Below are positions 54 through 18,213 of a stretch of DNA of 64,000 nt, piece by piece (the stretch's first letter is position 1; every line of letters starts with the position of its first letter). This DNA comes from Candidatus Omnitrophota bacterium. Its GTDB lineage: Bacteria; Omnitrophota; Gorgyraeia; Gygaellales; Profunditerraquicolaceae. Below the pieces are notes generated by a model that was given only the letters and a program-made list of their open reading frames with translations, had not been told where the DNA came from and searched no databases. The translations under genes were made by a program, and so were the position numbers. The stretch lies in NCBI GenBank assembly GCA_030650425.1, contig JAUSED010000008.1:4554-68553 (forward strand), in the 5' to 3' direction.

Positions 54-82
54 GTAGGGACTGTCCCACGACAAGATAAGTA
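54..82. repeat. REP-like element: GTAG + GGGACTGTCCC palindrome + conserved tail ACGACAAGATAAGTA (leuC/leuD junction)
   Basis: Same GTAG-GGGACTGTCCC(C) unit recurs at 10026-10123, 11341-11389 and 18171-18213. Confidence 0.7.
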
Positions 83-107
83 TCAGTAGCGGGAGATAAG
101 CGAAACT

Positions 108-599
108 ATGATCCTCAAAGGCAAGGTCCACAAATTCGGCGACGATATCAATACCGACGATATTATCTCGGCGAAATACCTGGTTTCTACTGATGCCAAG
201 GAATTAGGCTCGCATTGTATGGAGAGTATTGCCCCGGATTTCGCCAAGAAGGTCAGCCCGGGAGATATGATTATCGCGGGAAAGAATTTTGGCTGCGGTT
301 CAAGCAGAGAGCATGCGCCGGTAGCGATTAAGGGGTGCGGAGTTTCAGCGGTGGTCGCTAAAAGTTTCGCGGCGATATTTTTTAGGAACGCCATCAATAT
401 CGGCCTGCCTTTCTTAGAATCAGATGATGCGGATAAGATAAAAGACGGGGATTTAATCGAAATAGATTTAGGCGGTGGTATAATCAAAAACCTTACCCGG
501 AATGAAACTTATAAAACGCAGGCCTTCCCTGAGTTTTTGCAGGAGCTGGTAAAAGAGGGCGGCCTGATGAGTTATATTAAAAACAAAGGAAAGAAGTAA
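108..599 (+). CDS. leuD: 3-isopropylmalate dehydratase small subunit
   Basis: 163 aa; N-terminus MILKGKVHKFGDDINTDDIISAKYL typical of LeuD/aconitase swivel domain; ATG 108; followed by leuB. Confidence 0.88.
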   Translation: MILKGKVHKFGDDINTDDIISAKYLVSTDAKELGSHCMESIAPDFAKKVSPGDMIIAGKNFGCGSSREHAPVAIKGCGVSAVVAKSFAAIFFRNAINIGLPFLESDDADKIKDGDLIEIDLGGGIIKNLTRNETYKTQAFPEFLQELVKEGGLMSYIKNKGKK

Positions 600-609
600 C
601 AACGTCGGT

Positions 610-700
610 GTAGGGGAGGTTTAAACCTCCCCCCGAGCCCCAATCGCAGGGGACATTTTCCGTCAGGGCTATCAGGGATTCTTTAAAGGAAAGTGTCCCC
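610..700. repeat. composite REP cluster: GTAGGGGAGGTTTAAACCTCCCCCC palindrome + inverted pair GGGGACATTTTCC / GGAAAGTGTCCCC
   Basis: leuD/leuB intergenic; the same 26-bp palindrome recurs at 29825-29850; the GGGACA(C/T)TTTCC core recurs at >10 sites. Confidence 0.7.
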
Positions 701-726
701 TAGGATAATTATTTTGGAGAATACTC

Positions 727-1779
727 ATGTATAAAATCGCAGTTATAGCCGGAGACGGCACAGGGCCTGAGGTTGTCGCGGAAGGTTTGAAGGTCCTGAA
801 GGCAGCATCCAATAAATTTAAATTCAAATATGAACTAAAGGATTTTGATTTTAGCGGTAAGCGGTATTTAGAAACCGGGAAGCTTGTCGAAGAGAAGGAT
901 ATCGAGGAGTTAAAAAAATATTCCGCAATTTATCTTGGCGCGGTGGGTGACCCGAATGTAAAACCCGGCATTATTGAGACAGGCGTCTTGTTAAAATTAA
1001 GGTTTGACTTGGATCAGTATATAAATTTAAGGCCGGTTAAGCTTTACAATTCTAATTTTTGCCCTTTAAAGGACAAAAAACCGGAAGATATAGATTTTGT
1101 GGTAGTGCGTGAGAATTCCGAAGGACTATATAAAGGTATGGGGGAGTTCCAGAAAAAAGGCACCAAAGAAGAGGTGGCTATTCAGATTTCTTATAATACA
1201 CGTAAAGGTGTTGAGCGCTGCATTCGTTATGCCTTTGAATATACCCGTAAGCGCAACAAAAAGAAAAAGCTGACTTTATGCGGCAAGACCAATGTCTTAA
1301 CCTATGCCTGGGATCTTTGGCAGAGGGCCTTTAACGAGGCGGCCAAAGACTATCCGGATATTACCACGGATTACGCGCACGTGGATGCGACGACGATGTG
1401 GTTTGTGAAAAATCCGGAGTGGTTTGACGTGATTGTTACGGATAATATGTTTGGAGATATTATTACGGATTTGGGCGCGATGATTCAGGGCGGGATGGGC
1501 ATTGCCGCGGGCGGAAATATTAATCCCGAAGGCGTATCGATGTTTGAACCGATCGGCGGAAGCGCTCCCAAATATACCGGAAAAAATGTGATTAATCCTT
1601 TAGCCGCGATTTGCGCCGTAGGTATGCTCTTAGAGAACTTAAGCGAGGTTCAAGCGGGAAAAGCAGTTGAGGATGCGGTGATTAAAGTTGCAAGCAAAAA
1701 GTTAAAATCGCTGGCTGCCGGGAAGATGGGTTATTCCACCAGCGAGGTAGGGGATCTGGTCGTTGAAAACCTAGCCTAA
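727..1779 (+). CDS. leuB: 3-isopropylmalate dehydrogenase
   Basis: 350 aa; [14 protein letters not shown]-terminus, NLRP and GSAPxxxG motifs of isocitrate/isopropylmalate DH family; adjacent to leuD. Confidence 0.9.
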
Positions 1780-1801
1780 CGTTGCCTATAACTAAACCTA
1801 C

Positions 1802-1903
1802 GGGACATTTTCCAACCCTTAGAGAAGGGGACACTTTCCGTCAAGGTTCTTAAGGAATCCTCAAAAGGAAAGTGTCCCCTTCCGGCTAAAAGGAAAGTGT
1901 CCC
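1802..1903. repeat. nested inverted REP pairs (GGGACATTTTCC, GGGGACACTTTCC / GGAAAGTGTCCCC, GGAAAGTGTCCC)
   Basis: leuB/asd intergenic; two left copies and two right copies in inverted orientation (BIME-like). Confidence 0.7.
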
Positions 1904-1930
1904 GGTTCGAGAAAGAAAAGGAAGTTTCTA

Positions 1931-2989
1931 ATGAAAAAATATAATGTTGCGGTAATAGGTGTAGGAGTGGTGGGGATAGAGATGCTGAGGGTTTTAAAGC
2001 AACGTAATTTTCCCATCGGAGAATTACGCGTTTTTGCCCGCTCTAGCCGCGATATAGATGTAGATGGCCAAAAATATTCGGTAAAACCGATTAGTCCCGA
2101 AGGTTTTGAGGGCATAGATATCGCTTTGTTCGCAGGGACTGAAGGAGAGAAAGGCGCCGCGGTTACTTACGCGAACGAAGCAGTTAAAAGAGGCGCGGTG
2201 GTCATCGATAATGGCGCGGATTTCCGCATGGATCCGGATGTCCCGCTGGTTGTTCCGGAAGTAAACGCGGCAGATGTAAAAAAGCACAAAGGTATTATCG
2301 CTAATCCCAATTGTTCAACTATCCAAATGGTTGTAGCGTTAAATCCTATTTATAAGAAAGTCGGGATCAAGAGGATAATTGTTACTACTCTGCAAGCTTC
2401 CAGCGGAGCAGGTAAAGCTGCTGTCGAACAGCTCTGGCAGGAAACCGAAGAAGTAATTCTTAGAAGTCAGAAGTCAGAAAACAGAAGTCAGAAAGTTCTG
2501 TCTTCTGTCTTCTGTTCTCCGTCTTCTGAAAAACCAATGCCGCAACAGCTGGCTTTCAATGTCTTTCCCCACATCGGTTCCTTTGTCGAAGGCGATTATA
2601 CTAATGAAGAATGGAAATTGGTTAAGGAGACGCATAAAATTATGCACGCGCCGAAAATTAAAATTTCAGCAACTACTGTTCGGGTTCCGGTAAGGACTGG
2701 CCACTCCGAATCAGTTTATATTGAAACTGTTCGTCCCATTGCGGTGGATAAAGTTAAAGCTATTCTTTCCAAAGCCCCCGGCGTGATTCTAATGGATGAA
2801 CCCAAAAATAATCTCTATCCTATGCCTAAGGATGTAGAGGGTAGGGATGAGACTTTTGTCGGCCGCATCCGTAAGGACGCTTTTGTAAAAAATGGTTTAT
2901 GGCTGTGGGTGGTAGCGGATAACCTGCGTAAGGGAGCCGCCACCAATGCTGTGCAGATCGCCGAATGCGTAATCTCAAGCTCGAAATAG
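1931..2989 (+). CDS. asd: aspartate-semialdehyde dehydrogenase carrying an in-frame repeat insertion
   Basis: 352 aa; N-terminal Rossmann VAVIGVGVVG, active-site region NPNCSTI; residues SQKSENRSQKVLSSVFCSPSSE are encoded by an inverted purine/pyrimidine repeat at 2458-2530. Confidence 0.88.
   Translation: MKKYNVAVIGVGVVGIEMLRVLKQRNFPIGELRVFARSSRDIDVDGQKYSVKPISPEGFEGIDIALFAGTEGEKGAAVTYANEAVKRGAVVIDNGADFRMDPDVPLVVPEVNAADVKKHKGIIANPNCSTIQMVVALNPIYKKVGIKRIIVTTLQASSGAGKAAVEQLWQETEEVILRSQKSENRSQKVLSSVFCSPSSEKPMPQQLAFNVFPHIGSFVEGDYTNEEWKLVKETHKIMHAPKIKISATTVRVPVRTGHSESVYIETVRPIAVDKVKAILSKAPGVILMDEPKNNLYPMPKDVEGRDETFVGRIRKDAFVKNGLWLWVVADNLRKGAATNAVQIAECVISSSK
2458..2530. repeat. intragenic inverted purine/pyrimidine repeat (AGAAGTCAGAAG...)x / (TTCTGTCTTCTG...)x inside asd
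   Basis: Imperfect 34-nt arms with one mismatch per unit; read in frame as SQKSENRSQKVLSSVFCSPSSE. Confidence 0.65.
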
Positions 2990-3705
2990 AGTATGACGGG
3001 ACTAATTACGCAGGTTGGCAGGTTCAACCTAAAGCCCACGGCAAGACCATTCAGGCAGTCATTGAGAAAACACTCCGCAAGATCCTCCGTGAAAAAATAA
3101 AAATCATTGCTTCAGGCAGGACTGACGCGGGCGTGCATGCCCGGGCTCAAGTGGCCAATTTTTTCACCTCTTCAAATTTTCCGCTATCCCGATTAAAAAT
3201 AGGCCTCAATGGAATTCTTCCCGAAGATATCAAAGTTATAAAATTAAACGAGGTAGGCCCGGATTTCCACAGCCGCTTTTCGGCAAAATCAAAAATCTAC
3301 CGTTACACCATTTTAAATCGCGGCTATTCTTCACCTTTATGGCGTAATACGGTTTATTTCTATCCCCACCCCTTGGACGTAAAGCTTATGCAGAAGGAAG
3401 CCGAATGTTTATTAGGCAGGCATAATTTCCGCGCTTTTTGCGCCAGCCACGGAAGAGAGAAGGATCAGATTAAGGAAATCAGGAGAATAGCGATCAGCCG
3501 GAAGAAAGATTTCATTTATATCGATATTGAGGCAGACGGATTCTTATATAATATGGTCAGGAATATCGTCGGGACATTGATCGAAATAGGAAGGGGCAGG
3601 ATTCCTCGAGGCTCGCTAAAAAAAATACTCCTTTCCCGTAACCGCAGGCTTGCCGGCCAAACCGTCCCTCCCCGCGGCCTTTGTCTTTTGAAGGTAAAAT
3701 ATTAA
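2965..3705 (+). CDS. truA: tRNA pseudouridine(38-40) synthase
   Basis: 246 aa; GRTDAGVHA catalytic motif; start overlaps asd end. Confidence 0.85.
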   Translation: MRNLKLEIEYDGTNYAGWQVQPKAHGKTIQAVIEKTLRKILREKIKIIASGRTDAGVHARAQVANFFTSSNFPLSRLKIGLNGILPEDIKVIKLNEVGPDFHSRFSAKSKIYRYTILNRGYSSPLWRNTVYFYPHPLDVKLMQKEAECLLGRHNFRAFCASHGREKDQIKEIRRIAISRKKDFIYIDIEADGFLYNMVRNIVGTLIEIGRGRIPRGSLKKILLSRNRRLAGQTVPPRGLCLLKVKY

Positions 3706-3714
3706 TAAAAAATA

Positions 3715-3859
3715 GTAATGCGTCAGTCAATGGGGGAAATTCCCATCGTGTCATTGCGAGCGAACGAAGTGAGCGAAGCAATCTCGACGAGATTGCTTCG
3801 TCGCTGCGCTCCTCGCAATGACAAATTCCTTGGATCGCCCCCGTTCACTGACGCATTAC
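3715..3859. repeat. 145-bp nested palindromic element (outer IR GTAATGCGTCAGTCAATGGGGG / CCCCCGTTCACTGACGCATTAC; inner GTCATTGCGAG...CTCGCAATGAC hairpin with GAAGCAATCTCG/ACGAGATTGCTTC core)
   Basis: truA/rplM intergenic; GTCATTGCGAG-type cores recur at 16032, 37648, 46505, 34411. Confidence 0.7.
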
Positions 3860-3878
3860 AAAAAATAATAAAAAATAT

Positions 3879-3906
3879 TTGACTTAAGCTTTAAATATGA
3901 TATACT
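3879..3906 (+). promoter_or_regulatory. sigma70-like promoter for rplM-rpsI (TTGACT-16-TATACT)
   Basis: -35 3879-3884, -10 3901-3906, 8 nt before ATG 3915. Confidence 0.45.
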
Positions 3907-3914
3907 TTTAGTCT

Positions 3915-4346
3915 ATGAAAAAAACCTACTCAGCAAAAAAAGAGGATGTAAAGAGAGTCTGGTATTTGGTGGATGCCAAAGATAAGATACTCGGTCGGAT
4001 GGCAGCTAAGGTGGCCAGCATCTTAAGGGGCAAGCATAAGCCGATATTTACTCCGCATGTAGATACCGGGGATGCCGTGATTATCATTAATGCTTCCCAA
4101 GTCAGGCTTACCGGCAGAAAGGCCAAGCAAAAAGTGTACCGGCGTTATTCCGGTTATCCGGGTGGCTTAAGGGAAGTCTCTTTTGAAAAGATGTTCAAGA
4201 ATAAGCCTACAACCGTAATCAAGCTGGCAGTCAGGCGCATGCTTCCCGGTGGCGCGTTGGGCCACGATATGTTAAAGAAGCTAAAGATTTATGCTGATGA
4301 TAAGCATAATCAGCAAGCGCAGAAGCCGCAAGTTCTGGAGGTATAA
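3915..4346 (+). CDS. rplM: 50S ribosomal protein L13
   Basis: 143 aa; conserved L13 N-terminus KRVWYLVDAKDKILGRMAA; sigma70-like promoter 3879-3906 upstream. Confidence 0.93.
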   Translation: MKKTYSAKKEDVKRVWYLVDAKDKILGRMAAKVASILRGKHKPIFTPHVDTGDAVIIINASQVRLTGRKAKQKVYRRYSGYPGGLREVSFEKMFKNKPTTVIKLAVRRMLPGGALGHDMLKKLKIYADDKHNQQAQKPQVLEV

Positions 4347-4350
4347 ATAA

Positions 4351-4746
4351 ATGAGTGAGACAATAAAATATAAAGCAGTAGGAAGGCGCAAGGAATCAGT
4401 GGCTAGAGTGGCGCTTATTCCCGGTAAAGGGGATTTTCTAGTCAATAAACGGCCTTATGAAAAGTATTTCTTGCGGGAGACAGACAGGATTATTGTGAAA
4501 CAGCCTTTAGACGCGACTAATAATATGAATAAGTATGATGTTGTTGCCAATATTAGAGGAGGCGGACTAACCGGCCAGGCAGGGGCATTAAGGCTGGGTA
4601 TTTCCCGCGCGTTGATTTCTATGGACCCGGCCCTAAAAGATTTACTGCGCAAACAGGGTTATTTGACTCGCGACCCTCGCGCTAAGGAACGCAAGAAGTA
4701 TGGCCAGAAGGGCGCGCGTAAACGCTTCCAGTGGACTAAGAGGTAA
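4351..4746 (+). CDS. rpsI: 30S ribosomal protein S9
   Basis: 131 aa; C-terminal RDPRAKERKKYGQKGARKRFQWTKR typical of S9; rho-independent terminator follows. Confidence 0.93.
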   Translation: MSETIKYKAVGRRKESVARVALIPGKGDFLVNKRPYEKYFLRETDRIIVKQPLDATNNMNKYDVVANIRGGGLTGQAGALRLGISRALISMDPALKDLLRKQGYLTRDPRAKERKKYGQKGARKRFQWTKR

Positions 4747-4795
4747 GATGATTACACAGATTTAAAAATAGATTACACAGATTTAGAGTAAACTA

Positions 4796-4823
4796 ACCCC
4801 GCTGGGAAAAGCGGGGTTTTTTA
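4796..4823 (+). terminator. rho-independent terminator after rpsI
   Basis: CCCCGC-TGGGAAAA-GCGGGG followed by TTTTTT. Confidence 0.6.
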
Positions 4824-4841
4824 TTGCCGACGAGAAAAACC

Positions 4842-4870
4842 TTGACTACGACGGGTTTTTATTCTAAGAT
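4842..4870 (+). promoter_or_regulatory. candidate promoter for arg operon (TTGACT-17-TAAGAT)
   Basis: Located between the rpsI terminator and argC RBS. Confidence 0.3.
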
Positions 4871-4898
4871 TAAAAGATTATTGAGGAGAATAGATAGT

Positions 4899-5921
4899 AT
4901 GTTAAATGTTGGGATTGTTGGAGTTTCGGGATATGCGGGAGAAGAGTTAATTCGGATTCTCCTAAACCATCCGGGAGTAAAGATTAGCGGGCTTTTTTCA
5001 AGCAGCGCCTGCGGAATGCCGATTGCGAAAATATTCCCCGAGTTAGCTAAAGATTTAGGCTTAGTCTGTTTAAAGCCGGATATAAAGAATATCGTCGATA
5101 ATTGCGATCTTGTATTTTTAGCCCTGCCGCATACTGCTTCCATGGAATTAGTTCCGCAACTGGTTAAAGCGGGAAAGAGGGTAATTGATTTAAGCGCTGA
5201 TTATAGGCTTAAAGACTTCAGAGTATATGAGCAATTTTATCAGCATAAACATAAAGATAAATTAAATCTCAAGGCAGCAGTTTATGGGCTGCCTGAATTA
5301 TACCGGTCAGAGATTAAGCAGGCAAAAGTGGTTGCCAACCCCGGGTGTTACCCGACGGCAGCGATATTGGCTTTGGCGCCATTAGCGGCTTTAGGCTCGG
5401 TGGATGTAAGTTCAATAATTATCGATGCCAAGTCAGGCGTAAGCGGCGCGGGAAGAAAAGCAACCGAGGAATTTTTCTCTTCGCAAGACAAAGAAGATTT
5501 TAAGGCCTATAAGGTGGGCGTGCACCAGCATACCCCTGAAATTAGTCAGATATTATCAAGCCTGGCAGGTAAAAAGGCCAAGCTAACTTTTGTGCCGCAT
5601 CTTTTACCGGTAAAGAGGGGGATATTGGAGACGATTTATCTGAGAAAGGCCGCGAAAACCAAACATCAAGCGCCAAGTTTAATTAATTTATATAAGAAAT
5701 TCTATAAGCAAGAGCCTTTTGTAAGAATAAAGGCCGAAGGAGAGTTCCCGCGGCTGGCGGATGTGGTAGGGACAAATTTCTGCGATATTGGGATCTGGAA
5801 TTCTGTTGACAATATAATTATAATCTCTGCTATTGATAATCTAGTGAAAGGGGCTTCCGGGCAGGCAGTGCAGAATATGAATATCATGTATAAGTTTCCG
5901 GAAACAATAGGGTTACTATGA
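4899..5921 (+). CDS. argC: N-acetyl-gamma-glutamyl-phosphate reductase
   Basis: ORF track starts at 4824 but ATG 4899 (MLNVGIVGVSGYAGEEL) preceded by GAGGAG is the likely start; PGCYPT active-site cysteine motif. Confidence 0.88.
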   Translation: MLNVGIVGVSGYAGEELIRILLNHPGVKISGLFSSSACGMPIAKIFPELAKDLGLVCLKPDIKNIVDNCDLVFLALPHTASMELVPQLVKAGKRVIDLSADYRLKDFRVYEQFYQHKHKDKLNLKAAVYGLPELYRSEIKQAKVVANPGCYPTAAILALAPLAALGSVDVSSIIIDAKSGVSGAGRKATEEFFSSQDKEDFKAYKVGVHQHTPEISQILSSLAGKKAKLTFVPHLLPVKRGILETIYLRKAAKTKHQAPSLINLYKKFYKQEPFVRIKAEGEFPRLADVVGTNFCDIGIWNSVDNIIIISAIDNLVKGASGQAVQNMNIMYKFPETIGLL

Positions 5922-7054
5922 AGATATACACTAAATCAATTTTACCGTTAGGCTTTAAAGCTAGCGGCATATCGAGCGGAATCAAAAAGTCAGGAAAATT
6001 AGATTTGGCTTTATTTTTTTCGGAAACTCCGGCAACCGCCGCCTGTGTATTTACAGCTAACAGTATTAAGGCAGCCCCGGTTATTTTGAGTAAAGGCTAT
6101 TTAAGGAGTAACTATTATTTTCAGGCGATCATCGCCAATAGCGGGAACGCCAATTGTTTTACCGGCAGGCAAGGCTTAAAAGATGCTCAATTAACCTCTA
6201 AATTTTTAGCTGATGCTTTAGGTTTGAAGGAAAAGGAAGTTTTGGTTGCTTCTACCGGAATCATCGCCAAGAAGTTACCGGTTGATAAGATTAAGCTGGG
6301 GATTCCCGGATTGATTAAGCAACTATCCAGAGAGGGGATTAATCAGGCGGAGAAAGCGATCATGACTACGGATACCTTCACTAAGAAGATTTCGGTAAAG
6401 TTTAGTTTGGGCCCCAAGACGGTTACTATCTGCGGCATAGCTAAAGGCGCCGGGATGATCGCGCCGAATATGGCCACTTTGTTAAGTTTTATTTTTACAG
6501 ATGCCAAGATTACCCGGCAAGCGCTTAATCAGGCTTTAAAAGTCAGCGTGCGAAATTCATTTAACTGTATAACGGTAGATGGCTGTATGAGTACTAATGA
6601 TGCGGTGATGCTTTTAGCAAATGGGGCTGCGCAGAACGCCTTGGTTAGCGGAGGGAAGAATTTGGATTTATTTATCAGGGTTTTAAGCTTAGTCTGCCTG
6701 GAGTTGGCGAAAATGGTGGTTAAGGATGCCGAAGGCGCGAGTAAATTTATCCGGATTAAGGTTAGCTCCGCCAAAAATTACAATCAGGCAAAAGCCGCAG
6801 CCTTAAGTATAGCTAACTCTAATCTTGTTAAGACAGCGATCTATGGCCAGAATCCGAATTTCGGAAGGATTGCCGCCGCTATCGGAGCAAGCGGGGCAGG
6901 GGTTGAAGAGAAGGATTTGAAGATTAAGGTTAGTTCGCTAAAGAAAAAAGAGATAGAGATTGAAGTTGAGCTTAATCAGGGTAAGGCGAATGCCGTGATT
7001 TATACTTCGGATCTTACCCCTGAATATGTTAAGATAAACGCGGAATACAATTAA
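5918..7054 (+). CDS. argJ: bifunctional glutamate N-acetyltransferase / ornithine acetyltransferase
   Basis: 378 aa; ATLLSF self-cleavage region (ATML-type) present; ATGA overlap with argC. Confidence 0.88.
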   Translation: MKIYTKSILPLGFKASGISSGIKKSGKLDLALFFSETPATAACVFTANSIKAAPVILSKGYLRSNYYFQAIIANSGNANCFTGRQGLKDAQLTSKFLADALGLKEKEVLVASTGIIAKKLPVDKIKLGIPGLIKQLSREGINQAEKAIMTTDTFTKKISVKFSLGPKTVTICGIAKGAGMIAPNMATLLSFIFTDAKITRQALNQALKVSVRNSFNCITVDGCMSTNDAVMLLANGAAQNALVSGGKNLDLFIRVLSLVCLELAKMVVKDAEGASKFIRIKVSSAKNYNQAKAAALSIANSNLVKTAIYGQNPNFGRIAAAIGASGAGVEEKDLKIKVSSLKKKEIEIEVELNQGKANAVIYTSDLTPEYVKINAEYN

Positions 7055-7065
7055 GTGAGGTAAAA

Positions 7066-7920
7066 ATGGAAGAAGCAATCAGAAAAGCAGACGTATTAAT
7101 CGAGGCCCTGCCGTATATCAAAAGGTTTCATAAGAAAATAATTGTCATAAAATACGGCGGAAGTATTTTGGGCGAAGAAAAAATCCGTAAAGGAGTGCTT
7201 GAGGATATTGTTTTCCTTAATTTTATGGGCTTAAAGCCAGTTTTAGTTCATGGCGGCGGCCCGAACATCAGCGATCGCATGCGGCATTCGGGAAAGAAGA
7301 CCGAATTTGTGGATGGGATGCGCGTCACTGACGAAGAAACGCTTGAGGTGGTGGAAGAAGAACTCAAGACTCTAAATGATATTATTGTTAAGGAAATTTT
7401 GGAATTAGGGGCAAAGGCTGTCGGCTTAAACGGAAAAAAAGACCAGCTTATTCAGGCTGAAAAGAAAAAGGCAAAGATAGATTTAGGCTTGGTCGGCAAT
7501 ATTGTCGGCGTCAATGCCGAAGCGATTCTGGATGAAATAAAGAAAGATAAGATTACGGTTATTTTACCTATGGGCATCGGTAAAGACAAAAAAATATATA
7601 ATGTCAATGCGGATGAAGCAGCTGCCAGTGTGGCAGGAAGCCTTGAAGCGGAAAAATTCGTTCTATTGACTAATGTTAAAGGTATCTTACGTAATCCTGA
7701 TGACCCGCATTCATTTATTTCAACATTGACCACTAAAGAAGCCAAAGGTTTAGTTGAAAATAATATTATCCAGCAGGGGATGATCCCTAAGGTTAAAGCG
7801 TGTATTGACGCCTTGGAAAAAGGGGTTAAGAAGACGCATATTATTGACGCGCGCATTCCCCACGGTTTACTGCTTGAGATATTTACCGATAAGGGGATCG
7901 GGACGGAGATTATTCAATGA
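7066..7920 (+). CDS. argB: acetylglutamate kinase
   Basis: 284 aa; amino-acid kinase family, VIKYGGS and VHGGGP motifs. Confidence 0.88.
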   Translation: MEEAIRKADVLIEALPYIKRFHKKIIVIKYGGSILGEEKIRKGVLEDIVFLNFMGLKPVLVHGGGPNISDRMRHSGKKTEFVDGMRVTDEETLEVVEEELKTLNDIIVKEILELGAKAVGLNGKKDQLIQAEKKKAKIDLGLVGNIVGVNAEAILDEIKKDKITVILPMGIGKDKKIYNVNADEAAASVAGSLEAEKFVLLTNVKGILRNPDDPHSFISTLTTKEAKGLVENNIIQQGMIPKVKACIDALEKGVKKTHIIDARIPHGLLLEIFTDKGIGTEIIQ

Positions 7921-10123: not shown

Positions 10124-10144
10124 CTATTTGGGAGATAAGTGAAA

Positions 10145-11326: not shown

Positions 11327-11340
11327 CGCTAGTATAGCCA

Positions 11341-11389
11341 GTAGGGACTGTCCCCGTTTTTTGGGGACTGTCCCACGACAAGATAAGTA
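11341..11389. repeat. GTAG-GGGACTGTCCCC-GTTTTTT-GGGGACTGTCCC-ACGACAAGATAAGTA (argG/argH junction)
   Basis: Near-identical to 10075-10123. Confidence 0.7.
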
Positions 11390-11413
11390 TTGGCACCTAA
11401 ATACAGGAGAGCA

Positions 11414-12802
11414 ATGTCCAAAAAACTTTGGGGCACAAGATTCTCAAAGCAGACAAACGCGTTAACCAACAAGTTTACTTCCAGTATCTCCTTTGATCAG
11501 CGATTGGCTAAGTATGATTGTTTGGGGAGTATCGCGCACGCGAAAATGCTGGGTAAGCAAAGGATTATCCCTAAGGCTGATTCCGCTTTAATGGTTAAGG
11601 GGCTTAACTCTATTTTGCAGGATTTAAAAGGCGGTAAATTTAAATTTGATTTAGGCGCCGAGGATATCCATTCCAATATTCAGGAGGCGTTGGTGAAAAA
11701 GATAGGCAAGGCTGCTTTTAAATTGCATACGGCAAGATCCCGCAACGACCAGATAGCTTTGGATATAAAAATGTATATCAAGGATGAAATAGATAACTTG
11801 GAAGGGTTGATCTCTGAGTTGCAAAAAGCAATTCTCAAGCTCGCGAAGAAGAATTCCGAGGTGATTATCCCCGGCTATACGCATTTACAAGTAGCCCAAT
11901 GCGTATTGCTGGCGCATCATCTTTTGGCTTATATCGAAGGCTTAGAAAGGGATAAGCAAAGATTACTTGATGCGAAAGCGCGGCTGGATGTTATGCCTTT
12001 AGGCGCTTGCGCGTTTTCCGGGACGAGCCTTCCGATTGACAGGAGCTATGTAGCTCGGGAATTAGGCTTTAAAAACGTAACCGCTAATAGTATTGATTCG
12101 GTCAGCGACCGGGATTTTATCATTGAGGCCCTGGCTGCCTTATCCATTTTGTCGGTGCATCTTTCGCGGATGGCCGAGGATCTTATTCTCTGGTCAACCA
12201 AAGAATTCTCATTTATTGATATTGATTTTTCTTTTTGCACCGGTTCAAGCATTATGCCGCACAAAAAGAATCCGGATATACTGGAATTAATCCGGGGCTC
12301 AGTCGGTAAAATCCAGGGTGATCTTTCCAGTGTTTTGATATTGATGAAGGGGTTACCTTCTTCCTATAACCGGGACCTGCAGTTGGATAAACCGCCGCTT
12401 TTTGACGCCATAGATACGGTTAAAGACATTTTGGAGATTTTTGTTGCCTTGTTTGAAAATATTGTGATTGAGAAAGAAGCGATTGCCGGACGCCTGGGCG
12501 ACGAAGCCTTATTTTCAGTTGATGTTGTGGAATACCTGATTAAAAAGGGCATCTCTTATAGAGAGGCGCACGATATTGTCGGCTCAATGGTCAGGGATTG
12601 CTTGGATAAAGGGAGAAAGATTTCATGCTTAAGCGAAAAAGAGTTAAATAAATATTCCCCTAAGCTTAAGACAGATGTAAAAAAGATACTCAATGCTTGG
12701 GTTTCGGTGAATCTTAAGCAATCCTATGGCGGGACAGGTTTTACGCAGGTTAATCTTCAACTTAAAAGATGGAAGAGGTTATTGGAAAGGAGAAAAATAT
12801 GA
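11414..12802 (+). CDS. argH: argininosuccinate lyase
   Basis: ORF track starts at TTG 11390; ATG 11414 (MSKKLWGTRF) with AGGAGA RBS; fumarate-lyase signature GSSIMPHKKNPD. Confidence 0.9.
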   Translation: MSKKLWGTRFSKQTNALTNKFTSSISFDQRLAKYDCLGSIAHAKMLGKQRIIPKADSALMVKGLNSILQDLKGGKFKFDLGAEDIHSNIQEALVKKIGKAAFKLHTARSRNDQIALDIKMYIKDEIDNLEGLISELQKAILKLAKKNSEVIIPGYTHLQVAQCVLLAHHLLAYIEGLERDKQRLLDAKARLDVMPLGACAFSGTSLPIDRSYVARELGFKNVTANSIDSVSDRDFIIEALAALSILSVHLSRMAEDLILWSTKEFSFIDIDFSFCTGSSIMPHKKNPDILELIRGSVGKIQGDLSSVLILMKGLPSSYNRDLQLDKPPLFDAIDTVKDILEIFVALFENIVIEKEAIAGRLGDEALFSVDVVEYLIKKGISYREAHDIVGSMVRDCLDKGRKISCLSEKELNKYSPKLKTDVKKILNAWVSVNLKQSYGGTGFTQVNLQLKRWKRLLERRKI

Positions 12803-13356
12803 CGCGTTTCCGGATTTTAGCTTTGCTTTTTCTTTTCTCTGTTTGCAGCACTGCGTTCCTATCTGCCGCTGATGAGACCCTAACCATTACCACTTATTAT
12901 CCTTCACCGTACGGTAGTTATAATTCTCTTCAAACAAGCACACTTGGCGTGGGAGACAATAACGGCGATACTAAGCTTACTTCTGCTGATGTGCCTACTA
13001 CTGTTGGAGATGTCTGGATTAAAGGCAAGGTCGGCATCGGGACGACGACACCGGGGACGAAGTTGGAGGTGAACGGTCAAATTAAGATCACCGGGGGTAA
13101 CCCTGGAGCAGGTAAAGTTTTGACTTCTGATGCCAATGGAGTGGGGAGTTGGCAGGGGGGGGGAGCTGGATTGGTTCAATATGGGGGTAGTTACTTAGTT
13201 GAATATATGGGTGGCACATGTACTACTCCTAACATAGTAACGAGTAATTGTTCCTGTCCCGCTGGTTATTCAGCTAGGATGATAGCAAAAGGCGAGTATT
13301 ACTATTATCAGCCATGGGATGCTGCTCATTGGGGCTATGCTTGTGAAAAATATTAA
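12799..13356 (+). CDS. secreted Gly/Thr-rich protein with Cys-rich C-terminal module (resembles tail-fibre or adhesin tips); function unknown
   Basis: ATG 12799 overlaps argH stop (ATGA); signal peptide MTRFRILALLFLFSVCSTAFLSA; motif GKVGIGTTTPGTKLEVNGQIKITGG...GKVLTSDANGVGSWQ; 5 Cys in last 45 aa. Confidence 0.55.
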   Translation: MTRFRILALLFLFSVCSTAFLSAADETLTITTYYPSPYGSYNSLQTSTLGVGDNNGDTKLTSADVPTTVGDVWIKGKVGIGTTTPGTKLEVNGQIKITGGNPGAGKVLTSDANGVGSWQGGGAGLVQYGGSYLVEYMGGTCTTPNIVTSNCSCPAGYSARMIAKGEYYYYQPWDAAHWGYACEKY

Positions 13357-13385
13357 TTGCGATAAAATCAAAATTAAATTATTAA

Positions 13386-13444
13386 ATTATAGACGGTTTA
13401 CGGAAGAAAATTATAGAAAATTATAGAATTATAGACGGTGTACG
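13386..13444. repeat. AT-rich tract with direct repeats ATTATAGACGGT(T/G)TACG x2 and (A)ATTATAGA x4
   Basis: Between the Gly-rich protein gene and the MNT-HepT gene; locally much more AT-rich than flanks. Confidence 0.5.
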
Positions 13445-13547
13445 TAACTGCTTAGCGTATAAGATGATAGGAAACAAATACATGAATTTAAAGAAAAAAT
13501 GAAGATAAACGTTAGTGAAGGGAATCACAAAAAATAGGGGTCAGCAA

Positions 13548-14396
13548 ATGTTAAATAAGAGTATAGCGATTCTCAAGAAGTATTTTCTTAATAAACCGGA
13601 TATATCGGCGGCTTTTTTATTCGGCTCTCAGGCAAAGACTTACGCGGGCAAGATTTCAGATTGGGATATCGCGGTCTATTTTTGGCCGAAAGAGGATAAG
13701 AGTGAAATTGAGTGGGAAGAGGCGGGTAAGGCCTATCCCGGAGAGAATAAAATTTGGGATGACCTCGTAGATATACTTAAGACCGATAATGTGGATCTGG
13801 TGGTCTTAAACCGCGCTCCGGCAAACATAGCAGCTTCGGCAATTAGCGAAGGCAGGGCCTTGGTAATTAAAGACAGAAAGGCCTTTTTGGATTTTATGCT
13901 GGTAACTATGCGCCAGGCCGAGGATTATTCTGATTTCGTAGATACCTATTATAAGATCTCCCAACGTTCAAGCTCCCTTGGCCAAAGAGACAGGGAAAAA
14001 TTAAAAAAGATTATAGATTTCTTAAGCCATGAAGTTTCTTCTCAGGAATATTTTTCAAAATTTGATTTCAACGGCTATCAAGATGCCCATAAGCGCCGCG
14101 ATATTGAGCGATGGGTGGAGAATATGATAAATTCCGCCATAGATATAGGAGAGGTTATTTTGGCTTCAGAGAAAAAGAAGATCCCTGATTATTATAAAGA
14201 TGTGTTTGTCCAGCTTGGGTTATTGCCGCAGTTTAGGCAAATGGATGTGGCAAAATTTACCGGCTGGGTTAAGCTGCGGAATATCCTGGCTCACGAATAC
14301 CTTGATCTAAAATGGCAAAAGATAAGTAGTTTTGCCCAAGAATGCAAAACGCATTTTGCGGTATTTTTGGAGGCCGCTAAGGAGTTCTTGAAATAA
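13548..14396 (+). CDS. fused minimal nucleotidyltransferase (MNT) - HepT/DUF86 (HEPN) protein, toxin-antitoxin-like
   Basis: N-terminus GSQAKTYAGKISDWDIAV (GS...DxD nucleotidyltransferase motif); C-terminus RNILAHEY (Rx4HxY HEPN motif); ORF track starts at GTG 13515, ATG 13548 likely. Confidence 0.7.
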   Translation: MLNKSIAILKKYFLNKPDISAAFLFGSQAKTYAGKISDWDIAVYFWPKEDKSEIEWEEAGKAYPGENKIWDDLVDILKTDNVDLVVLNRAPANIAASAISEGRALVIKDRKAFLDFMLVTMRQAEDYSDFVDTYYKISQRSSSLGQRDREKLKKIIDFLSHEVSSQEYFSKFDFNGYQDAHKRRDIERWVENMINSAIDIGEVILASEKKKIPDYYKDVFVQLGLLPQFRQMDVAKFTGWVKLRNILAHEYLDLKWQKISSFAQECKTHFAVFLEAAKEFLK

Positions 14397-14406
14397 AGTA
14401 AATAAA

Positions 14407-14424
14407 GGGACCGTTTCTATTTTT
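14407..14424. repeat. solo left terminal repeat GGGACCGTTTCTATTTTT of the composite-element family
   Basis: No matching right end nearby. Confidence 0.55.
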
Positions 14425-14445
14425 GATTCAGAGGATAAAAAACAA

Positions 14446-15693
14446 ATGCATGAATTCAAATATATTCATAAACAGCTTTATTGCGAAAAATTAAAAGTAG
14501 CAGGCTTAGCGGAAAAATTTGGAACGCCGCTGTATGTCTATAGCTATGATACCTTAGTTGGCCACTTTCTTAAATTGAAGGAGGCTTTTAAATCTATTAA
14601 ACCGTTGATTTGCTATTCGGTAAAAGCCAATTCTAATCTGGCAATTTTGAGAGCATTAGTTAATCAAGGTGCTGGCTTGGATATCGTTTCCGGAGGCGAG
14701 CTTTTCCGGGCAAGGCGCGCCGGTTGTCCGGCAAATAGAATAGTCTATGCTTCGGTAGGTAAAACCGATTACGAAATAAAAGAGGCGATAAAATCAGGAA
14801 TTTTCTTTTTCAATGTGGAGTCATTCCCTGAATTAAAAAATATCCAGCATATCGCCAGAAGGCTTAAAAGGCGGGTGAATGTTGCTTTGCGTATCAATCC
14901 TGATGTTGAGCCTAAAACCCATAAATATATTACTACCGGGAAGCTGACCAATAAATTCGGGATAGATTTTCAAAGCGCTAAACGGATTATTTTACTAGCG
15001 AGAGGTTTTTCGCATGTAAAAATCTCCGGGCTGCACATTCATATCGGCTCACAAATCACTACTCCGGAGCCTTTTGTGGCAGCGATAACCAGAATAATCA
15101 GGTTTATCTTGGTGCTTAAAAAAGAGGGGATCGCCTTGGAATATTTAAATATCGGGGGAGGCCTGGGGATTATTTACGATCGGGAAACGCCTCAGACCGC
15201 GGCCAGATTCGCGGCCAGGATCTTACCCTTATTGAAAAAATCCGGGCTTAAAATAATTATGGAACCGGGCAGGTTTATCGCGGGGAATGCCGGGATATTG
15301 GTGACTAAAGTACTTTATGTCAAAAATACGCCGAAGAAAAAATTTATTATTGTGGATGCCGGAATGAATGATTTAATCCGTCCGGCGTTATATGACGCGT
15401 ATCATAACATTGTTCCTCTACAGAGGACAGAAAACAGAAAACAGGAGGCAGAGAAAGCCGATATTGTCGGCCCTATTTGCGAGAGTGGAGATTTTTTAGC
15501 CAAAGAAAGGATTGTGCCTAATCTGGAAGAAGGAGATTATTTAGCCGTAATGGGCGCCGGGGCATATGGTTTCAGTATGGCCAGTAACTACAATTCCCGG
15601 CGAAGGCCCCAAGAGGTACTCGTAAATAAAGATAAGGTATCTGTAATCCGTAAAAGAGAGTCTTATAAGGATTTAATCCGTAATGAATTGTAA
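14446..15693 (+). CDS. lysA: diaminopimelate decarboxylase
   Basis: 415 aa; fold-III PLP decarboxylase motifs (CYSVKAN, GPICESGD). Confidence 0.88.
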   Translation: MHEFKYIHKQLYCEKLKVAGLAEKFGTPLYVYSYDTLVGHFLKLKEAFKSIKPLICYSVKANSNLAILRALVNQGAGLDIVSGGELFRARRAGCPANRIVYASVGKTDYEIKEAIKSGIFFFNVESFPELKNIQHIARRLKRRVNVALRINPDVEPKTHKYITTGKLTNKFGIDFQSAKRIILLARGFSHVKISGLHIHIGSQITTPEPFVAAITRIIRFILVLKKEGIALEYLNIGGGLGIIYDRETPQTAARFAARILPLLKKSGLKIIMEPGRFIAGNAGILVTKVLYVKNTPKKKFIIVDAGMNDLIRPALYDAYHNIVPLQRTENRKQEAEKADIVGPICESGDFLAKERIVPNLEEGDYLAVMGAGAYGFSMASNYNSRRRPQEVLVNKDKVSVIRKRESYKDLIRNEL

Positions 15694-15755
15694 ATGAAAC
15701 TGTTTCCATTTTGTGAAGGAAACTGTTTCTAGCTCAATCGGGAAAGTGGGTATTG

Positions 15756-16589
15756 ATGATACAGAAAACATTTACTTTTACTAAAATGGTCGCCTCAGGC
15801 AATGATTTCATAGTTTTGGAAGTCAGAAGTCAGAAGTCAGAAGTCAGAAATTTAAAAGATTTGGCAAAGAAAATGTGCGATAGGAAATTTGGGATAGGCG
15901 CAGACGGCCTGCTTGTTTTAGAAAAGTCCAGGAAAGCCGATATCAAAATGCGCATTTTTAACGCCGACGGTTCGGAGGCTGAGATGTGCGGTAACGGCGC
16001 CCGTTGCGCCGCGTATTATTTAAGCCAAAATGTGTCATTGCGAGCCCCGAAGGGGCGAAGCAATCTTAAAATAGAAACTAAGGCCGGAGTTATCGAATCT
16101 ATAGTAAAAGGGAATAACATTAAAATTAATTTAACCGAACCAAGTAATTTAAAATTAGATATACCTATTGGAATAAACAATCGCCTAATAAAAGTTAACT
16201 TCATTAATACCGGTGTCCCCCACGCAGTAATATTCGTGGAAGGGCTTGATCAGATTGATGTTGCAAGTATCGGGAGTAAAATCCGCTATCATAGAAAATT
16301 TATTCCCGTAGGAACGAATGTTGATTTCATGGAAATCCTAAGCAAAGATTCTATAAAGGTAAGGACTTATGAAAGAGGCGTAGAGGATGAGACCTTGGCT
16401 TGTGGTACTGGGAGCGTTGCCGCAGCGCTCATTTTTGCCTTAAAGACAGTTGGCTTAGATAGAATTAACGTAAATACCGAAAGCGGAGACACTTTAAAAG
16501 TTTACTTTAAAAAAGAGAAAAATAAATTTTCAGATGTTTGGCTTGAAGGTAAAGCCGGAATAGTTTACAAAGGAGAATATTATGTTTAA
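15756..16589 (+). CDS. dapF: diaminopimelate epimerase with two in-frame repeat insertions
   Basis: GNDF motif and catalytic Cys regions (EMCGNGARC, ACGTGS); (GAAGTCA)x4 at 15819-15848 and the GTCATTGCGAG hairpin at 16032-16065 are translated in frame. Confidence 0.85.
   Translation: MIQKTFTFTKMVASGNDFIVLEVRSQKSEVRNLKDLAKKMCDRKFGIGADGLLVLEKSRKADIKMRIFNADGSEAEMCGNGARCAAYYLSQNVSLRAPKGRSNLKIETKAGVIESIVKGNNIKINLTEPSNLKLDIPIGINNRLIKVNFINTGVPHAVIFVEGLDQIDVASIGSKIRYHRKFIPVGTNVDFMEILSKDSIKVRTYERGVEDETLACGTGSVAAALIFALKTVGLDRINVNTESGDTLKVYFKKEKNKFSDVWLEGKAGIVYKGEYYV
15819..15848. repeat. (GAAGTCA)x4 tandem heptamer inside dapF, in frame
   Basis: Related to the purine arm of the asd insertion at 2462-2495. 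Confidence 0.6.
16032..16065. repeat. GTGTCATTGCGAG-CCCCGAAGGGGC-GAAGCAATC hairpin inside dapF, in frame
   Basis: Same head as intergenic copies at 3748-3760 and 37648-37660. Confidence 0.65.
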
Positions 16590-17460
16590 GGGTTCTATCA
16601 CAGCCATTGTTACGCCTTTTAAAAACGGCAAGGTCGACGAAAAGAAGCTTGGGGAACTCATCGAATTCCAGATTAAAAACGGTACTTCCGGAATCGTGCC
16701 TTGCGGCACAACCGGAGAATCCGCGACTCTTTCTTTCCAAGAGCATGAGCGCGTAATTGAAATTACTATCGCGCAGGCGGCTAAAAGGGTGCCGGTGATC
16801 GCCGGGACAGGCTCAAACTCTACCGAAGAGGCGATCATCTTGACTAAGCACGCGGCAAGTGCCGGAGCTAACGCCTCTTTGCAAGTCTCTCCATATTATA
16901 ACCGGCCAACGCAACAAGGCCTCTATGAGCATTTCAAGGCAGTTGCCCAATCAGTAAATATCCCGATTATCCTTTATAACATTGCAGCTCGTACCGGAGT
17001 GAATATTGAGCCGGAGACTATCGCCAGGTTAGCCAATGACTGTAAAAATATCGTGGGAGTAAAAGAGGCTTCGGGAAACTTAGAACAGATGTCGCGCGTA
17101 AAAGCGCTTTGTCCGAAAAACTTCGCGTTGATTTCCGGAGATGACGGTTTGACGCTGCCGGTTTTAAGTATCGGCGGCGTAGGGATAATCTCCGTCGTGG
17201 CTAATATTGTTCCGCGGGATGTGGCGGATCTGGTCAGCGTTTTTGAAAAAGGGGATATTAAAGCAGCCCAAACCCTGCATTATAAATTATTACCGTTAGT
17301 CAAAGCGATGTTTATTGAAACTAACCCTATACCAGTGAAGACGGCTATGGGCCTGTTAGGTATGAGTGAAGCGGATTTAAGGTTACCAATGTGCTCAATG
17401 TTACCTGAGAATTTGGAGAAACTTAAAAAAGCGCTAAAAGATTACGGGGTGTTAAGATGA
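16582..17460 (+). CDS. dapA: 4-hydroxy-tetrahydrodipicolinate synthase
   Basis: 292 aa; GTTGES and Schiff-base lysine region of the DapA/NAL family. Confidence 0.88.
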   Translation: MFKGSITAIVTPFKNGKVDEKKLGELIEFQIKNGTSGIVPCGTTGESATLSFQEHERVIEITIAQAAKRVPVIAGTGSNSTEEAIILTKHAASAGANASLQVSPYYNRPTQQGLYEHFKAVAQSVNIPIILYNIAARTGVNIEPETIARLANDCKNIVGVKEASGNLEQMSRVKALCPKNFALISGDDGLTLPVLSIGGVGIISVVANIVPRDVADLVSVFEKGDIKAAQTLHYKLLPLVKAMFIETNPIPVKTAMGLLGMSEADLRLPMCSMLPENLEKLKKALKDYGVLR

Positions 17461-18167
17461 TTAAACTCGGAATCGCTGGTGTCTGCGGCAAAATGGGGAG
17501 GCGGATTTTTGAGTTGGCGTCTTTTGATAAAGATTTTGAATTAACCTTTGGCTTAGAGAAAAAAGGTACTCCGGCAATAGGTAAAGATATAGGTAAGCTG
17601 AAGATATCCTCAAGTCTTGATGGATTATTTCTTGTTGATGTATTCGTGGATTTTACCATCCCGGAGGCAACCGAAATAAATCTTGATTATATCGCTAAAT
17701 ATAGAAAACCTCTTGTATTGGGCACAACAGGTTTAAGCGATGCGCAGATAAAAAAAGTCGAAGAGATTTCCCGGGTTGTTCCGGTTGTCTTTACTCCGAA
17801 TATGGCTATCGGGGTTAATGTTTTATTTTCGATCCTGCCGCAGATCGCTAAAAGGTTAGGCCCGGATTATAGTATTGAAATCGTCGAGGCGCACCATAAA
17901 TCCAAAAAAGACGCTCCTTCGGGAACAGCCAAGAAAATGATAGAGGTGTTGAGCGAGGCTACCGCCAGGCAAATACCCGCTCACTCGATCCGGCTGGGAG
18001 ATATTGTGGGAGACCATACAGTGATCTTCTGTGGAAACTCCGAGCGTATTGAAATCAAACATCAAGCGCATTCGCGGGATTTATTCGCTTTGGGCGCCTT
18101 AAGGGCGGCGAAATGGATTTTCGGCAAACCGGCCGGATTATATTCGATGCAGGACGTACTAAAATAG
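17457..18167 (+). CDS. dapB: 4-hydroxy-tetrahydrodipicolinate reductase
   Basis: 236 aa; GxxGxxG N-terminus, EAHHKSKKDAPSGTA motif; ATGA overlap with dapA. Confidence 0.88.
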   Translation: MIKLGIAGVCGKMGRRIFELASFDKDFELTFGLEKKGTPAIGKDIGKLKISSSLDGLFLVDVFVDFTIPEATEINLDYIAKYRKPLVLGTTGLSDAQIKKVEEISRVVPVVFTPNMAIGVNVLFSILPQIAKRLGPDYSIEIVEAHHKSKKDAPSGTAKKMIEVLSEATARQIPAHSIRLGDIVGDHTVIFCGNSERIEIKHQAHSRDLFALGALRAAKWIFGKPAGLYSMQDVLK

Positions 18168-18170
18168 GGG

Positions 18171-18213
18171 AAAATGGGGACTGTCCCCGTTTTCTGGGGA
18201 CTGTCCCCATTTT
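18171..18213. repeat. 43-bp near-perfect palindrome AAAATGGGGACTGTCCCC-GTTTTCT-GGGGACTGTCCCC-ATTTT (dapB/dapL junction)
   Basis: Two GGGGACTGTCCCC copies, each followed by a T-rich run. Confidence 0.7.

Follow-up and report, generated by a model that had tools for sequence, protein, structure and literature searches.

GTAG-tagged hairpin units between genes of a Candidatus Omnitrophota bacterium are probably a family of REP insertions

RESULTS

Repeat units at the leu, arg, and dap junctions

We analyzed a 64,000-nucleotide (nt) stretch of DNA from a Candidatus Omnitrophota bacterium (GenBank assembly GCA_030650425.1, contig JAUSED010000008.1, positions 4,554 to 68,553; hereafter the window, with coordinates 1-64000), in which a short palindrome, GGGACTGTCCC, recurs in the gaps between leu, arg, and dap genes. 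All of the open reading frames (ORFs) that we took as genes (approximately 63) lie on the + strand, and the GC skew is positive in every 4-kb bin, which indicates an extreme co-orientation of genes with replication. The gene order is leuD, leuB, asd, truA, rplM, rpsI, argCJBDFGH, and an unmatched ORF, followed by a MntA/HepT-like fusion, lysA, dapF, dapA, dapB, and dapL. The genes flanking the repeat were confirmed with NCBIfam as leuD (108-599), argF (9103-10029), argG (10145-11326), argH (11414-12802), dapB (17457-18167), and dapL (18220-19377).

Seven exact copies of GGGACTGTCCC lie on the + strand at 57, 10078, 10098, 11344, 11364, 18177, and 18197, with two degenerate copies (one mismatch) at 10029 and 10045, and a search of both strands allowing one mismatch or fewer returned 16 matches against the 0.34 expected from shuffles. 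An identical 15-nt tail, ACGACAAGATAAGTA, accompanies three of the copies (68-82, 10109-10123, and 11375-11389; 0.05 expected) and ends 25 nt before the ATG of leuD at 108, 21 nt before that of argG at 10145, and 24 nt before that of argH at 11414. An earlier note on this DNA had described these copies, their tails close to start codons, and their confinement to the leuC/D, argF/G, argG/H, and dapB/dapL gaps, and we recovered the same picture: a covariance model built from related copies detects five units in the 64-kb window and none beyond these four gaps. We attribute this restriction to the fact that the first 19 kb consist mostly of biosynthetic operons.

Other parts of that description needed revision. 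The inventory was incomplete, as an additional tail-less, degenerate unit at 10014-10062 overlaps the argF stop codon, and what had been listed as tandem pairs are, by folding and covariation, the two arms of one hairpin and not two sites. The palindrome and tail do belong to the repeat, but the conserved unit is longer and begins with CTAGTRTWGCCAGTAG; CTAGTRTWGCCAGTAG, hairpin, and tail together make up a 61-nt unit that is 97% identical between the two arg copies. The gaps also differ in content, since the copy at 57 has a single arm and the dapB|dapL copy has neither head nor tail.

The argF|argG gap holds a full unit (10063-10143, + strand; 86.9 bits with the covariance model) made up of GTAG at 10075-10078, a first arm at 10078-10089, the loop GCTTTTT at 10090-10096, a second arm at 10097-10108, and the tail at 10109-10123, and the ribosome-binding site (RBS) GGGAGATAA starts at 10130. 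In its predicted fold the hairpin is formed and the RBS is unpaired, the fold being the weaker one (z = -2.5). The full unit between argG and argH (11329-11409, + strand; 80.6 bits) has the same layout, with GTAG at 11341-11344, arms at 11344-11355 and 11363-11374 around the loop GTTTTTT (11356-11362), the tail at 11375-11389, and the RBS AGGAGAGC at 11405-11412; its fold energy is -32.3 kcal/mol (z = -3.6).

The leuC|leuD unit (42-104, + strand; 53.6 bits) is a single-arm form with head CTAGTGTTGCCAGTAG at 42-57, GTAG at 54-57, palindrome at 57-67, and tail at 68-82, followed by the Shine-Dalgarno sequence GGGAGA at 91-96. The central 16 positions of the model, corresponding to one arm and the loop, are missing from it, while the orthologous junction of one related locus (L176) has the full two-arm hairpin with a GTA loop. 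The degenerate unit at the 3' end of argF (10014-10062, + strand; 30.2 bits) has the arms GGGACTGTTCC and GGGACTGTCCT, and argF terminates on the TAG (10027-10029) of the unit's GTAG. Between dapB and dapL there is a core hairpin without GTAG head or tail (18171-18213, + strand; 25.7 bits), the model match spanning 18162-18237 and covering the core hairpin only. The stem of this copy is extended by AAAATG/CATTTT to 17 pairs and followed by TTTTAG (-31.1 kcal/mol, z = -4.4), so that it looks like a weak terminator. CCAGTAG stands before the stem at 54-57, 10026-10029, 10075-10078, and 11341-11344 and is lacking at dapB|dapL.

Hairpin structure and sequence conservation

The unit is a mosaic in the order head AGYRTTGCCAGTAG, hairpin, and tail ACGACAAGATAAG plus about 8 nt. 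The hairpin, GGGACTGTCCCC-loop-GGGGACTGTCCC, has 12 bp, a central T·T mismatch, and GTAG at its 5' foot, and it is the single helix in a consensus fold of 31 aligned copies (RNAalifold). Among 94 copies from the window and related contigs, 98.3% of cells pair, with 12 compensatory cells (eight A-U to U-A, three U-A to A-U, and one C-G to A-U) and 11 G·U cells; these counts come from a model-fitted alignment of related sequences and are supportive rather than proof. GTAG is conserved at more than 89% per position (G 92/94, T 83/93, A 90/93, G 93/94), and the central T is present in 88 of 93 first arms and 86 of 86 second arms. In a recurrent sub-family, GGGTCTGTCCCC...GGGGACTGACCC, A-U has become U-A such that arm-to-arm pairing is kept and the palindrome of each arm is broken, which argues against the arms being half-sites of a dimeric operator.

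The three full hairpins of the window have T-rich loops of 7 nt (GCTTTTT, GTTTTTT, and GTTTTCT) that are rare elsewhere, the loops in related contigs being GAA, GCA, or GTA (about 70 copies) or an insert of 25-45 nt. The T-runs that the earlier note had seen after the first copy are these loops of the 12-bp hairpin, and because the T-run is the variable loop, the argument for a terminator that was drawn from it falls away. Arm centers are spaced from 16 to more than 40 nt apart among copies, some related copies carry a reverse-oriented copy nested at the center of the palindrome, and a second tail class, CAGTAG-hairpin-CTACTG, merely lengthens the stem.

We considered and rejected a second helix, in which the head flank AGYRT would pair with RYGC after the Shine-Dalgarno sequence and CCAG with UUGG. 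These pairings were made out by eye, RNAalifold found no helix besides the hairpin in the aligned copies, and the candidate segments form a consensus of alternating R and Y. A role of the unit as a promoter was likewise rejected, as the spacing from TTGCCA to GATAAG varies from 21 to more than 37 nt and one related copy, described below, has its own promoter upstream. The flanking AAG-YRTTG repeats, examined as a possible target-site duplication, are seldom identical between the two sides. A scan of the window against Rfam 15 gave one tRNA at the gathering score and no match on the elements at E ≤ 10.

Filled and empty sites in related genomes

The units can be seen as discrete additions at the arg junctions by comparison with a related sequence (L146) that is syntenic with window positions 900-16400 at 77-82% nucleotide identity (blastn). 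The argF|argG junction measures 4 nt in L146 (...attattaGGGAGATAAttagATG) and 115 nt in the window, the argG|argH junction 20 nt (TAGtaatagAGGAGAGCgcaataATG) and 87 nt, and the window gaps equal the L146 sequences with the extra length made up by units. Since both junctions are empty in L146 and retain the same RBS, GGGAGATAA of argG and AGGAGAGC of argH are native ribosome-binding sites that lie outside the element. The same holds for the pre-ATG sequence GGGAGATAAG, which the earlier note had counted as shared; it is indeed present at 91-100 and 10130-10139 but belongs to the native Shine-Dalgarno region. The encoded ArgF ends in ...LLNNRCQ* in the window and in ...LLGR* in L146, the gene having gained its new C terminus, NNRCQ*, from the head of the element.

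Occupancy of other junctions also varies among relatives. Native gaps in L146 are 3-33 nt at most junctions. The leuD and leuB genes overlap in L176, at a junction where elements are found in the window and in L137, L142, and L185; the leuB|asd gap has the unit in L146 and other hairpins in the window; and the dapB|dapL gap of L182 contains an unrelated palindrome. A metagenome-assembled genome of Omnitrophota (L083) is 79% identical to the window over leuB (blastn), which marks the window as Omnitrophota-like. An exact look-up of the protein encoded by leuD gave no record. The hairpins of the leuD|leuB and leuB|asd gaps of the window (610-632, 640-700, and 1800-1905) are of other GGGAC types, whereas L137, L142, L146, and L185 carry the GGGACTGTCCC unit in those leu/asd gaps, and this difference implies turnover, from one species to the next, in which hairpins a junction contains. 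Presence/absence polymorphism of this kind between related genomes is what insertion and mobility would leave behind, and the common T-rich loops of the window hairpins suggest spread or homogenization within the genome.

The family in related contigs

A scan of metagenome contigs with an arm-plus-tail 20-mer recovered 68 stretches with 73 copies, which together with the three window copies and L096 make up a set of 77. Related Omnitrophota-like contigs, chosen for containing the motif, held 100 tail-bearing copies in 453 kb. CTGTCCC precedes 100 of the 109 near-matches to the tail, and the remaining 9 are without an adjacent hairpin; the tail-bearing unit travels as one, the tail never being seen apart from the hairpin. 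Downstream of the tail, each of the 73 assessable copies is followed by a same-strand ORF, whose start is 15-37 nt distant in the majority. On the other side, the preceding gene stops 0-14 nt ahead of the head in most cases, or else its stop codon is supplied by the TAG of GTAG, as in argF and about 12 related copies.

The 77 tail-bearing copies occupy approximately 31 types of junction, mostly of housekeeping genes (ten downstream proteins were named with NCBIfam and the rest read from protein termini). These include ribosomal and RNA polymerase junctions (rplK|rplA, rplA|rplJ, rplL|rpoB, rpoB|rpoC, and rpsH|rplF), fatty acid junctions (rpmF|plsX|fabH|fabD|fabG), biosynthetic junctions (leuC|D|B|asd, argG|H, and proB|proA|nadD), the junction of rny with a TIGR00282 metallophosphoesterase gene (ymdB-like), and positions upstream of serS, tyrS, coaD, nadE, and others. 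The proposed restriction to amino acid or other biosynthetic operons thus does not extend to the related contigs, where ribosomal, RNA polymerase, fatty acid, and tRNA synthetase junctions are occupied and the tail-bearing variant is scattered without functional bias. Density can be high, with about 8 units in 12-15 kb in each of L178 and L137 (fab and leu operons), and several junctions (rplK|rplA and rny|ymdB-like) are filled in contigs whose flanking proteins are 65-90% identical. In L200 the unit directly follows a canonical promoter, TTGACA-N17-TATATT, and forms a 5' leader. The left arm has been lost or has decayed in several orthologous copies.

A transposase gene in the window and a Planctomycetota relative

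A motif screen of open frames identified a gene for a tyrosine transposase associated with repetitive extragenic palindromic (REP) elements, or RAYT, of the Y1/HUH type at 40210-40800 on the + strand, with the motifs HLHLL and YIERNP. The ORF scored spans 40201-40800, with the likely ATG at 40210, and matches Pfam Y1_Tnp at 63.4 bits (cutoff, 23) and NCBIfam NF047646 at 74 bits (E = 1e-20; cutoff, 80). The gene lies between a GGGGACGCTCCCC hairpin at 40099-40111 (+ strand) and an inverted copy at 40839-40851 (- strand), with a GTAG at 40823-40826, 11 nt gene-proximal of the downstream copy. GGGGACGCTCCCC differs from the GGGACTGTCCC family by two central bases and is related to it but not identical.

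A Planctomycetota locus (L093) encodes a RAYT-like homologue that is 34% identical to the window RAYT (E = 6e-37) and whose gene lies between GGGGACTGTCCCC-GCA-GGGGACTGTCCCC and an inverted GGGGACAGTCCCC-CA-GGGGACAGTCCCC. This locus is a REP/RAYT system, or REPtron, built from exactly this hairpin, which offers an explanation for the recurrence of the GGGGACTGTCCCC hairpin in many phyla. RAYT-like ORFs are also present in L026 and L079. A further candidate REPtron, L007, was rejected, as the ORF between its two inverted hairpins encodes a small lipoprotein-like protein and no transposase.

That recurrence is broad. We counted more than 117 stretches of genome and viral contigs (L001-L130) with the exact pair GGGACTGTCCC-N5-15-GGGACTGTCCC, where by our estimate chance would give approximately 1. 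They come from many phyla, and among their sources are Actinomycetota, Planctomycetota, Omnitrophota, Aminicenantes, Geobacter relatives, Oxalobacteraceae, and Lachnospiraceae. Tandem arrays and flanking A and T tracts are each seen for some of these cross-phylum pairs; their orientation relative to genes is mixed in low-GC loci and not cleanly readable in high-GC loci. In viral contigs, control pairs of other GGG-N5-CCC odd palindromes were found in 0-5 stretches versus 13 for GGGACTGTCCC. We rejected a universal cross-phylum motif with one function, because control pairs also occur and the L093 REPtron is the simpler explanation. A literature search for the motif returned just unrelated eukaryotic or viral primer matches. 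In two 8-kb Omnitrophota loci (L075 and L089), one reverse frame is open throughout, such that each may lie inside a giant gene, and the GGGACTGTCCC pair is inside that frame.

Other repeats and neighboring features

The intergenic DNA of the window contains at least four other families of GTAG- or TTAG-tagged hairpins. A sister family, GTGACTGTCAC, occurs at 19778-19806, 29112-29122, and 34376-34404; the one in the folK|panC gap is built like the GGGACTGTCCC unit, with two arms around the loop GTCTTTT and T·T at the center, and the copy at 34376 is a perfect inverted pair. Long hairpins of the form GGGACCGTTTCTATTTTT...AAAAATAGAAACGGTCCC lie at 21772-21924, 26696-26861, 29796-29883, 37471-37583, 38986-39102, and 45741-45854, are often followed by a T-run in a terminator-like manner, and nest in their loops GTAG- or TTAG-tagged inner hairpins, GGGGACACTTTCC...GGAAAGTGTCCCC or GTAGGGGAGGTTTAAACCTCCCCTAC. 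The repeat family TCATTGCGAG...CTCGCAATGA is found at 3740-3850, as a long inverted repeat that precedes the rplM promoter, at about 34420, at 46530-46580, and around position 4003 of the Omnitrophota locus L089, where the motif flanks a GGGACTGTCCC pair.

In-frame heptamer repeats of the AGAAGTC type lie within asd (2460-2515), lysA (15420-15457), and dapF (15816-15853) and encode ...RSQKSENRSQK... and EVRSQKSEVRN within conserved enzymes; the one in asd is followed by its own inverted complement and resembles an intragenic palindromic insertion. Between the arg and the lys/dap gene blocks, a single ORF (13515-14396) matches both the MntA antitoxin (a nucleotidyltransferase) and the HepT toxin (a HEPN RNase) of type VII toxin-antitoxin systems.

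DISCUSSION

Origin of the units

The window elements are, in our judgment, probably GTAG-tagged REPs inserted between genes. The earlier note had allowed that they could be plain REP insertions, and the findings that bear this out are the GTAG with an imperfect hairpin, the RAYT gene in the window, the empty arg junctions of L146, and the varying occupancy among relatives. As REPs, they are a new family in a little-known phylum and an ordinary kind of bacterial repeat.

We hypothesize that the unit is nonautonomous and probably owes its spread or its uniformity to a Y1 transposase of the RAYT type, which would recognize GTAG, the hairpin, and the mismatch on single-stranded DNA; the RAYT encoded at 40210-40800 is the likely cognate enzyme. 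Units would have landed ahead of the native RBS, either in the tiny gaps of cotranscribed genes or within the final codons of the gene before. With its positive GC skew, the + strand is probably the leading-strand sequence and hence the lagging-strand template, and as this is the strand on which IS200/IS605-type enzymes act, elements would be expected in sense orientation. Selection would then keep those insertions that spare the RBS and coding sequence, which would result in a fixed position just before start codons, and with native gaps of only 3-33 nt a tolerated insertion would have to sit between stop codon and RBS.

Once transcribed, such a unit would place a stable hairpin directly after the upstream stop codon and leave the tail and the RBS single stranded. 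By analogy with characterized REPs, one would expect the 3' end of the upstream cistron to be protected and read-through to be partly lost, effects that would not be specific to amino acid supply; a generic REP effect on mRNA stability or intra-operon polarity is plausible on the same grounds.

Several observations weigh against this account. The hairpins beside the RAYT gene, GGGGACGCTCCCC, are not identical to the GGGACTGTCCC family, and the RAYT itself scores just below the NCBIfam cutoff. Copies are single or head to tail and do not form the inverted doublets of REPINs and of bacterial interspersed mosaic elements (BIMEs). Sense orientation is shared by each of the 73 assessable tail-bearing copies, most of which have a start codon 15-37 nt downstream, and the rplK|rplA and rny|ymdB-like junctions stay filled between contigs with 65-90% identity in their flanking proteins. 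Such regularity exceeds the needs of a purely selfish element and could reflect selection at the RNA level. The 13-nt tail is also conserved beyond any known RAYT requirement.

Alternative explanations

The likeliest of the alternatives is that the head-hairpin-tail unit has been exapted as punctuation of operons, that is, as a selected RNA module at intercistronic boundaries of housekeeping operons. It might act as a processing or stabilizing signal for a specific RNase or RNA-binding protein, or as an insulator, by which the downstream RBS would stay free of structure and neighboring cistrons would be translated without coupling. Besides the uniform orientation and the matching junctions occupied in diverged contigs, this proposal has in its favor a unit that takes up the whole interval between stop codon and RBS, the dense packing of units in L178 and L137 (fab and leu operons), G·U pairs suited to a structure on the sense strand, a tail that is kept even in copies not chosen for it, the L200 unit that forms a 5' leader after a promoter, and an RBS that is unpaired in the folds. 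We nevertheless regard it as unlikely. The unit is dispensable, given the empty arg junctions of L146, the overlapping leuD and leuB of L176, and the different palindrome at dapB|dapL in L182, and several orthologous copies have a left arm that is missing or degraded. Sense orientation and proximity to start codons are also expected from strand-specific RAYT insertion among co-oriented genes with very short gaps, Rfam has no match, and the consensus fold has no structure beyond the hairpin. A domesticated REP cassette in an Omnitrophota-like lineage, with a post-stop hairpin and a purine-rich unstructured tail before the RBS, strikes us as similarly doubtful. Were it true, selection, and not the strand bias of a transposase, would lie behind the 73 of 73 copies in sense orientation and the conserved 13-nt tail.

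That the units are attenuators or terminators of amino acid operons, in which the first palindrome and a T-run would end transcription conditionally and so set polarity, is very improbable. The idea drew on window copies that lie just in leu, arg, and dap gaps, on the T-rich stretches after the first arm in the three full hairpins, and on the dapB|dapL hairpin, which is followed by TTTT and had been listed as terminator-like. On its own, however, the first arm can form no more than 4 bp around a 3-nt loop. The T-run, which closes the 12-bp hairpin as its loop, gives way to GAA, GCA, or GTA in relatives, and behind the tail-bearing hairpins comes ACGACAAG and not a U-run. No leader peptide or alternative pairing was found with the consensus fold of the aligned copies, the family also occupies ribosomal, RNA polymerase, fatty acid, and tRNA synthetase junctions, and the unit is absent from the arg junctions of L146.

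Least credible of all, to the point that we give it almost no weight, is a dimeric transcription factor operator in which each GGGAC-T-GTCCC palindrome is a site and pairs bind a tetramer: each arm is a near-perfect 11-nt palindrome, the arms are paired, and direct (T..T) pairs outnumber perfect inverted pairs by 13 to 1 in viral contigs, but the GGGTCTGTCCCC...GGGGACTGACCC sub-family breaks both palindromes while keeping arm-to-arm pairing, the spacing varies from 16 to more than 40 nt, the units are strand specific and flanked asymmetrically by head and tail, their positions are internal to operons rather than at promoters, and single-arm copies retain head and tail.

Reading the units as REP insertions removes a wrong but tempting interpretation, in which the motif would control leu, arg, and dap genes, and illustrates that REP insertions can mimic operon-internal control elements. 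It also adds a REP/RAYT system, with clean pairs of filled and empty sites, to what is recorded for an uncultured phylum that has hardly been studied. Should the elements affect mRNA stability or read-through, closely related uncultured strains would differ in expression because of them.

Comparison with known systems

GTAG-tagged REPs form a super-family in which stems are 6-13 bp long and include G·T pairs, loops are short, and sub-families can be complementary to one another; they lie after ORF 3' ends between co-directional or convergent genes, can provide TAG as a stop codon, occur as several families per genome, are associated with RAYTs, and are present in the Planctomycetes-Verrucomicrobia-Chlamydiae (PVC) superphylum (Di Nocera 2013, PMC3733652). 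The window family shares with them GTAG at the 5' foot of an imperfect stem-loop of 20-40 nt with a short loop and G·T pairs, sub-families that complement one another, the coexistence of several families within a genome, a place after ORF 3' ends between mostly co-directional genes, the use of TAG as a stop codon, and presence in the PVC superphylum, and it resembles the GTAG-24 families in particular in its long 12-13-bp stem broken by a mismatch. It departs from them in the 13-nt conserved 3' tail and 9-nt conserved 5' extension that go with the hairpin, and in that every copy seen is in sense orientation and near the next start codon. The TnpA-REP enzyme of Escherichia coli requires a 5' GTAG and a stem mismatch (Messing 2012, PMC3479197; Corneloup 2021, PMC8266576), which provides a ready reason for the invariant GTAG and T·T of the window family.

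As in REPtrons (see also Nunvar 2010, PMC2817692), a Y1/HUH RAYT gene is flanked by inverted hairpins, here of the related GGGGACGCTCCCC type. Palindrome-associated elements derived from IS200/IS605 are described as inserting strand specifically into the lagging-strand template (PMC6006769). They resemble the window family in having a Y1 HUH enzyme of a related type, in strand bias, and in imperfect hairpins that such an enzyme would recognize on single-stranded DNA, and they differ in that neither a left-end/right-end pair nor a defined target tetranucleotide emerged for the window units. Compared with REPINs, the window units are single or head to tail and lack head-head or tail-tail dimers, inverted copies being found only in the nested form; an inverted-dimer organization defines REPINs and not REPs in general.

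BIMEs of E. coli were reportedly described by Gilson and colleagues in 1991. Their REPs alternate in orientation, and they bind integration host factor or gyrase. Like BIMEs, the window family combines a REP hairpin with conserved nonpalindromic motifs in an intergenic mosaic that is sometimes arrayed in tandem; unlike the alternating REPs of BIMEs, it is uniform in orientation. The malE-malF REP is an E. coli example of a REP within an operon. Another, REP325 in yjdMN, is a partly Rho-dependent terminator and a stabilizer of upstream mRNA (bioRxiv 10.64898/2026.03.23.713779). The window units likewise place a stable hairpin between cotranscribed genes directly after the upstream stop codon, and by this analogy an upstream-biased expression would be expected of them.

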